From the IMG/VR virus record IMGVR_UViG_3300005645_000004, positions 1 through 30,079 of that record: a stretch of DNA of 30,079 bases. One strand, 5' to 3'. The notes beneath the pieces were generated by a model that searched no databases, was not told where the DNA came from, and saw nothing but the letters and a program-made list of their open reading frames with translations. Shown here in pieces: positions 862 through 1,188 of this stretch. Positions within the stretch are counted from its first letter, which is position 1. Each line of letters starts with the position of its first letter. Position numbers and translations under genes: made by a program. The DNA is from a virus. Lineage: Duplodnaviria > Caudoviricetes.

Positions 862-995
862 AGTTTAAAAGCCGCCACCGACCCCAGAGTAGCCAACATC
901 ACCCCCATCACAAATCCCAGCATCACCCAAGCAAACTTTACCCATAGAGAAGCGTCGTTATTTTCCATTTTTTGCTTATTTATCTTTTCCTGCAT
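858..995 (-). CDS. Small single-TM membrane protein (45 aa)
   Basis: MQEKINKQKMENNDASLWVKFAWVMLGFVMGVMLATLGSVAAFKL*; its TGA overlaps the ATG of the FISUMP gene (ATGA coupling at 858-861). Confidence 0.7.
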   Translation of the reverse strand: MQEKINKQKMENNDASLWVKFAWVMLGFVMGVMLATLGSVAAFKL

Positions 996-997
996 TT

Positions 998-1153
998 TTA
1001 AGACAAATAAAAAGCACCATAAAAATGGTGCTTTGAATTGATGGAAATTAAAATCTGGAGAGGGCTATTTACTCTCTCTCTCTCTCTCTCTCTCTCTCTC
1101 TCTCTCTGCTCCTTCTTACAAGCCAAAAAATAATTTTCTAGCAACTTTGGCAT
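998..1153 (-). CDS. Leader peptide ORF (51 aa) containing an (AG)n-encoded poly-RE tract
   Basis: MPKLLENYFLACKKEQRERERERERERVNSPLQILISINSKHHFYGAFYLS*; starts 7 nt after a TATAAT box, crosses the terminator hairpin and stops (TAA 1000-998) 2 nt before the ATG at 995. Confidence 0.65.
   Translation of the reverse strand: MPKLLENYFLACKKEQRERERERERERVNSPLQILISINSKHHFYGAFYLS
1005..1034 (-). terminator. Intrinsic terminator / attenuator hairpin inside the leader ORF
   Basis: Perfect 10-bp inverted repeat aaagcaccat (1011-1020) / atggtgcttt (1025-1034); the minus-strand RNA reads GCACCAU-UUUU-AUGGUGC followed by UUUUUAUUU. Confidence 0.75.
1072..1107. repeat. Dinucleotide microsatellite (CT)18 / (AG)18
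   Basis: 36-nt perfect CT run read directly from the sequence. Confidence 0.97.
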
Positions 1154-1160
1154 CTTATTT

Positions 1161-1188
1161 ATTATATAATATCAAATTTTTGATGCAA
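1161..1188 (-). promoter_or_regulatory. Sigma70-type promoter, probably giving a leaderless transcript
   Basis: TTGCAT (1188-1183), 16-nt spacer, TATAAT (1166-1161), then 7 nt to the ATG at 1153. Confidence 0.65.

Follow-up and report, generated by a model that had tools for sequence, protein, structure and literature searches.

To our knowledge, phase variation by attenuation at a repeat-bearing leader has so far been proven only for the pili of Streptococcus gallolyticus. As far as the consulted part of the report on pil1 and pil3 goes (Danne et al. 2014, PMC3894217), a simple repeat lies in a leader ORF whose stop depends on the reading frame and is placed relative to an intrinsic terminator ahead of surface-structure genes; isolates with a leader stop at least 28 nt before the terminator are mostly low-expressing. 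The pil1 repeat unit is GCAGA, its leader has a ribosome-binding site, and two of its three frames are ON. The second system of interest is the frameshift switch within a coding sequence, of which the M.MmyCI gene, with an AG repeat and frameshift-type phase variation, is an example (consulted part of PMC3498834). A literature search that did not take in the work of Paul et al. 2017 on diversity-generating retroelements (DGRs) of CPR bacteria returned no description of a switch of the kind discussed below in Patescibacteria or phages.

The window, by which we mean the whole 30,079-nt stretch of phage DNA analysed here, carries on its minus strand a leader cassette ahead of a predicted surface-protein gene (Table 1). 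A preliminary description of this DNA had listed a promoter, an ATG, 15 codons, (AG)18 and TAAATAG in that order, and every element that we checked is present, with the caveat that the -35 box matches TTGACA at 3/6 positions; the promoter is absent from the promoter-scan list. The leader ATG is located at 1153, 7 nt past the -10 box, and is followed by 46 nt (15 codons and 1 nt) up to the repeat. In L091, L076, L085, L043 and L053 the corresponding distance between -10 box and ATG is 8-10 nt. This leaves no room for a ribosome-binding site, and the leader ORF is probably leaderless or nearly so. The (AG)18 tract is the sole dinucleotide run of more than 4 units in the 30 kb (expected by chance, about 7e-16). 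No match at gathering score was found between the window and Rfam, its attenuators and riboswitches included.

Table 1. Positions of the leader cassette, its neighbouring genes and nearby elements in the window.
Feature	Position	Strand	Basis
Secreted or membrane-anchored FISUMP (Fib_succ_major) protein, truncated by the window end	1..861	-	PF09603, E 8e-22
45-aa ORF containing a single hydrophobic segment and overlapping the next ATG by its stop	858..995	-	Sequence; absent in L091
Predicted intrinsic terminator (stem-loop at 1034-1011, then a U-rich tail)	1003..1034	-	Terminator scan, folding, homologue alignment
Leader ORF, 51 aa at n=18 (predicted ON)	998..1153	-	Sequence; peptide homologues L091, L076, P0122, P0123, P0130
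TAAATAG, stops at +0 and +4 closing the two other frames	1065..1071	-	Same layout in homologues (chosen by the TAAATAG motif)
Perfect (AG)18 microsatellite	1072..1107	-	Sequence
Predicted promoter: weak -35 TTGCAT 1188-1183, 16-nt spacer, perfect -10 TATAAT 1166-1161	1161..1188	-	Sequence
5' end of the portable cassette and second, upstream -10 box (TATAAT 1229-1224)	1224..1253	-	Homology to L076/L085 stops at 1253
Upstream hairpin, at which the phage late operon possibly ends	1273..1289	-	Terminator scan
79-aa holin-like gene, last of the phage virion module	1394..1633	-	Most neighbours are viral; in one cluster 10% of the members have Holin_BhlA

Counted from the end of the repeat, stops are located at +0, +4 and +71, and the hairpin extends from +37 to +61. 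With 18 units the leader frame runs to the stop at 1000-998, 2 nt ahead of the ATG at 995; repeats of 19 and 17 units end it at +0 and +4, respectively, a pattern that returns every 3 units (computed for n=5-25). Our recomputation of the frame logic and of the terminator crossing thus gave the same result as the preliminary description, with the OFF stops 33-37 nt before the hairpin. By its reading frame, the window copy is predicted to be in the ON state.

This layout is shared with the system that the preliminary description had named as precedent. As in the part of the pil1/pil3 report used here (PMC3894217), a simple repeat whose unit is not a multiple of three lies within a leader ORF, here of 51 codons, and the repeat number sets the position of the stop relative to the terminator, which is a predicted one here. 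The early stops likewise fall at least 28 nt before the hairpin, so that the gap of 33-37 nt fits the low-expressing S. gallolyticus isolates, and surface-structure genes lie downstream, including a pilin in L076. The cassette nevertheless differs from what that part of the report describes: its unit is AG; its start 7-10 nt after the -10 box replaces a leader with a ribosome-binding site; a double stop leaves one frame in three ON in the window; and it is portable, lying before unrelated genes in Patescibacteria and here beside a phage. We liken the two by layout alone. The cassette would be pil1-like in its working; repeat unit, leaderless start, portability and phylum speak against its being a pil1 member by descent.

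With the coding dinucleotide switches, represented by M.MmyCI in the consulted part of PMC3498834, the cassette shares an AG tract behind which TAA closes an off frame. In contrast to them, its repeat is located in a separate leader: the ON frame closes at 1000-998, the regulated protein is not shifted, and the whole downstream transcription unit would switch. We come back below to the loci of Patescibacteria in which the tract lies within a gene. There, the same AG-stop motif also opens what we take to be signal peptides, reverse transcriptase genes and hsdS-like genes.

The hairpin and U-tract of the preliminary description were recovered by the terminator scan. The stem-loop has a predicted energy of -13.6 kcal/mol (z -3.9), and none of 200 shuffles was equally stable. 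In an alignment of six homologues the U-tail is present in all six, 46/48 cells pair and 2 pairs are altered on both sides, as compared to 35-75% pairing in slid controls. Since 41-224 of 500 shuffles reach the observed covariation values, the covariation is only suggestive. A model of the hairpin recovered the repeat-linked hairpins of other families with E values from 8e-5 to 0.8. When this model was run against 151 genomes, the best 30 matches examined were ordinary hairpins, 16 of them located at most 35 nt from an ORF end, so that the cassette hairpin appears to resemble the common gene-end terminator type of this lineage. An AG tract was found upstream of none of these best 30 matches (0/30), and the hairpin alone was rejected as a marker of the cassette. 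Neither a Rho nor a MutS domain was found in any of five cassette-bearing genomes, all of them incomplete, which speaks for a slippage-driven attenuator; against it, CPR bacteria retain mismatch-repair genes according to the consulted part of a review (PMC10221324).

We searched metagenomes with the pattern (AG)6-TAAATAGC and obtained 41 loci. By reading, 9 belong to the cassette family, another 5 have the tract at the start of a signal-peptide-like frame, and the remaining 27, which include one eukaryote-like locus found 15 times, are unrelated. L052 and L089 correspond to the window locus itself. Over the cassette of about 250 bp, identity to the window is 70-80% in three others, L091 (n=9), L076 (n=9) and L085 (n=8), which are followed by different genes: a FISUMP gene in L091, a pilin with PF07963 in L076 and a 111-aa membrane protein in L085. 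The stop layout and the downstream surface genes therefore recur in relatives, with differing n, in agreement with the attenuator logic and the ON state that the preliminary description had put forward. Within the family n ranges from 6 to 18, and among the 13 loci scored 7 are predicted ON and 6 OFF. The 40-nt leader of L053/L067 (n=7, predicted OFF) is identical to that of L078 (n=6, predicted ON) but for one base, and L087, with a 41-nt leader and n=7, is predicted ON. In these four loci the 111-aa membrane gene of L085/L043 is shrunk to a remnant, which the ON frame enters, and the next full gene begins at +230 where the contig extends that far. A change of repeat length had also been proposed for the window. 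The number of units does differ among homologues and near-identical relatives, but it is 18 in all three assemblies of the locus (window, L052 and L089). Contigs from seven lake runs break at the repeat, and none spans 1072-1107.

The same repeat-stop pattern occurs at 13 loci in GTDB, 5 of them titled Patescibacteria. L043 (Vogelbacteria, n=14) has a looser leader-hairpin form, and five GTDB loci have an in-frame form. Protein searches added three leader homologues. In one of them, P0122, the leader and a homologue of the window's 45-aa ORF form one continuous frame, and the C-terminal 27 aa of the window ORF are 56% identical to the tail of this fused leader; the fusion links the leader-hairpin and in-frame forms, which would thus be related by descent. 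At class level, the window DNA matched 53 of 401 genomes, with the leader-hairpin form in 7 of the 30 loci examined (n=10-27). Other searches added further loci, among them two paralogues in G824 with 8 and 4 units. Looser versions of the cassette, some with two frames in three ON, are thus found across Patescibacteria, as expected from the CPR context suggested earlier.

For statistics on the stop layout, 21 leader-hairpin loci were chosen by eye. Nine were obtained with patterns that include TA or TAAATAG; the other 12, from about nine families, were found without a stop-containing pattern, seven of them via a BLAST query that contains the stop. In all 21 a stop is located at most 5 nt from the repeat, at exactly +0 in 19, and each locus has at least one early-stopping frame and at least one that reaches the hairpin. 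The window-like layout, with one frame in three ON, is present in 14 loci, whereas 7 have the pil1-like layout with two in three; the proposal that one repeat length in three is ON therefore holds for the window and for 14/21 loci, as a subfamily trait. Multiplied by hand, the per-family null values come to about 4e-4 (near stop) and about 0.05 (switch layout), both inflated by selection by eye and by pattern. An open third frame has a null value of about 0.6-0.75 per locus and is weak evidence at any single one. Within the order to which G002 belongs, a short pattern matched 19 times, which is chance level as judged by the reversed control.

Taken together, these data make it probable that the (AG)18 leader is a phase-variable attenuator that works like S. 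gallolyticus pil1 and has a separate origin. We infer slippage within the population, leader translation, termination and antitermination as its steps. Transcription would start at or near the leader ATG and the leader would be translated; slippage would change the number of AG units, and one length in three would take ribosomes over the terminator hairpin. At OFF lengths the ribosome would leave ahead of the hairpin, which would then fold, and the transcript would end at the U-tail. At the ON length, 18 units, the ribosome would cover the hairpin and halt just before the next start, and transcription would reach the surface-protein genes. An antiterminator hairpin was considered too. Since no predicted alternative structure overlaps the terminator hairpin, direct occlusion by the ribosome, as in pil1, is the simplest model for keeping it open, and translational coupling may help.

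Such coupling was part of the preliminary description, and the distance between the ON stop and the next ATG is indeed 2 nt in the window and L091 and 5 nt in L294. It is not conserved, however, since ON-frame stops range from +53 to +127 in homologues and the next starts from +63 to +230. The same distances bear on a switch acting on translation only, in which the ON ribosome would melt the hairpin and reinitiate at the next gene, the hairpin being no transcription terminator. The short spacings in these three loci, the overlap of the 45-aa ORF with the FISUMP start and the absence of an obvious ribosome-binding site ahead of 995 all suit reinitiation. We nevertheless consider such a switch unlikely, because the ON stop varies from within the loop in L043 (+53) to well beyond the next start in L085 (+104), because the hairpin ends 15 nt short of the next ATG and leaves that start uncovered, and because the U-tail is conserved and similar hairpins occur at gene ends.

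The fused leader P0122 is what one would expect if leader and membrane segment had once been a single gene and the cassette were the relic of an ordinary frameshift switch, with hairpin and U-run as by-products of a hydrophobic coding stretch; in the Patescibacteria loci L039, L044, L046, L049, L050, L070 and L088 the repeat and TAAATAG open a signal peptide in frame. The unfused form recurs, however, ahead of unrelated genes with the hairpin kept via paired changes, and the repeat is long and perfect. Shared ancestry with the fusion loci is compatible with both readings and does not require separate origins. We regard a relic as improbable. In five in-frame loci (L039, L050, L070, L073 and L088) a hairpin and a U-rich run are located inside the signal-peptide code, and these signal-peptide hairpins could end transcription upon ribosome drop-off in the OFF frame.

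That the repeat is non-coding or neutral, acting on the promoter or on RNA stability or arising as an assembly artefact, the leader being untranslated, is highly improbable: leader translation has no direct sign and some (AG)n tracts of Patescibacteria lie near promoters with no ATG upstream, but the repeat begins 46 nt past the ATG, outside the promoter, the spacing between ATG and -10 box is kept in homologues, stops fall at exactly +0 in nearly all leader-hairpin loci, and three assemblies give the same sequence.

The surface-protein target foreseen by the preliminary description corresponds to the FISUMP gene. Its product has an N-terminal hydrophobic segment and PF09603 at the C-terminus. 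Over 2283 bp, the window and L052 differ at just 2 positions, 6 and 11, both A/G and near the 3' end of this gene. According to the consulted part of Wu et al. (PMC5758913), one known class of DGR variable regions consists of Fib_succ_major domains, and the targets with a C-terminal Fib_succ_major/CLec region described there resemble the window in the C-terminal position of the domain and in the restriction of variable sites to the 3' end. They differ in that neither a reverse transcriptase nor a template repeat was found within the window. The FISUMP gene is thus probably a DGR target, as judged from domain and variable sites. A separate contig, present in runs X1 and X7, matches only positions 1-37, with 4 differences, and is a candidate template repeat. 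In the RNA run X7, positions 158-627 are covered at a depth below 3 and the 1-37 look-alike at 10.9, whereas the phage side has no coverage. This run holds only a small share and may include DNA, and it was left out of the evidence.

The preliminary description, supported as to the switch logic, had missed this DGR-like target and the phage holin-like neighbour. The window carries terminase, SU10-type portal, capsid and adaptor genes. The identification of the last gene of the virion module as a holin is only a lead. Two other genes of the window encode a 2996-aa phage protein (1635-10625) with DNA polymerase III beta-clamp and RadC-like JAB domains, unusual in a virion module, and a 2080-aa protein (15863-22105) with imperfect 42- and 84-nt repeats, which separates the capsid region from the adaptor gene. 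Around the upstream hairpin (1261-1299), other contigs in four lake runs match with 4-5 differences, possibly a shared terminator or repeat.

Between 72 and 98% of the sampled words of positions 1-3000 are present in each of six lake runs, three of which are possibly the source, and contig depth is alike on either side of the repeat (8.8/7.7 in X1, 11.6/13.6 in X3, 10.2/10.1 in X4). The anchialine run X8 and the groundwater run X12 contain diverged FISUMP or phage pieces and no cassette. Phages with related capsids have genomes of 41-58 kb and the holin gene is also found on a 91-kb contig, so that an integrated prophage is plausible; the cassette may belong to the phage as cargo or to host DNA immediately beyond the boundary. 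We found neither a tRNA nor an obvious att site. In the viral collection the holin-like protein had no relatives and the capsid one, and repeat-stop patterns gave 3, 33, 0 and 4 matches, none of which, by reading, has the window layout. The host would be a Patescibacterium, likely an ultra-small lake bacterium, on account of the relatives of the cassette and not of the phage genes. The clamp domain of the phage was tried as a guide to the host, and its identity of at most 38% to the clamps of the class indicates none. P0001 matched 3 of the 401 class genomes; L302, the one checked, has no AG tract.

The genomes of Patescibacteria are tiny, and these bacteria rely on surface contact with their hosts. 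A portable switch of 250 bp that can be placed before any surface gene would be a simple and testable answer to the question of their surface variation, and would mean that pil-type attenuation phase variation evolved a second time, from another repeat unit and with a leaderless start. Only tentatively can all this be joined into one picture, in which a temperate phage of Patescibacteria would carry, after its holin gene, a portable host-derived (AG)n attenuator randomly switching a DGR-diversified surface lectin. The attenuator would be part of an (AG)n toolkit shared across the phylum, with an ON fraction of 1/3 or 2/3 determined by where the stops lie, and the same repeat would also gate DGR reverse transcriptases. 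If so, two layers of diversification would be stacked on one mobile gene.

We extended the census to (AG)6 or longer tracts in general. They occur in 65 of 401 sampled Patescibacteria genomes, with 97 tracts, 39 of which have at least 8 units; among these 39 a stop follows immediately in 10, for a background of 0.07. None of the 97 tracts is clearly of the leader-terminator form, which is therefore a minority use of (AG)n. Going by motif labels, 15 of the 39 longer tracts lie in what we take to be reverse transcriptase genes (L126, L127, L129, L130, L143, L147, L174, L175, L178-L180, L183, L202, L209, L215) and 4 in presumably avd-like genes (L182, L186, L190, L207). This suggests that DGR activity is itself phase-variable via (AG)n in these genes, which may already be described in the literature. 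Tracts of 6-7 units in L206 and L213 lie within genes that we take, by motif label, to be hsdS-like, as in phase-variable type I restriction systems. In L278, an (AG)10 leader and a hairpin precede a 68-aa protein that presumably resembles gas-vesicle GvpA.
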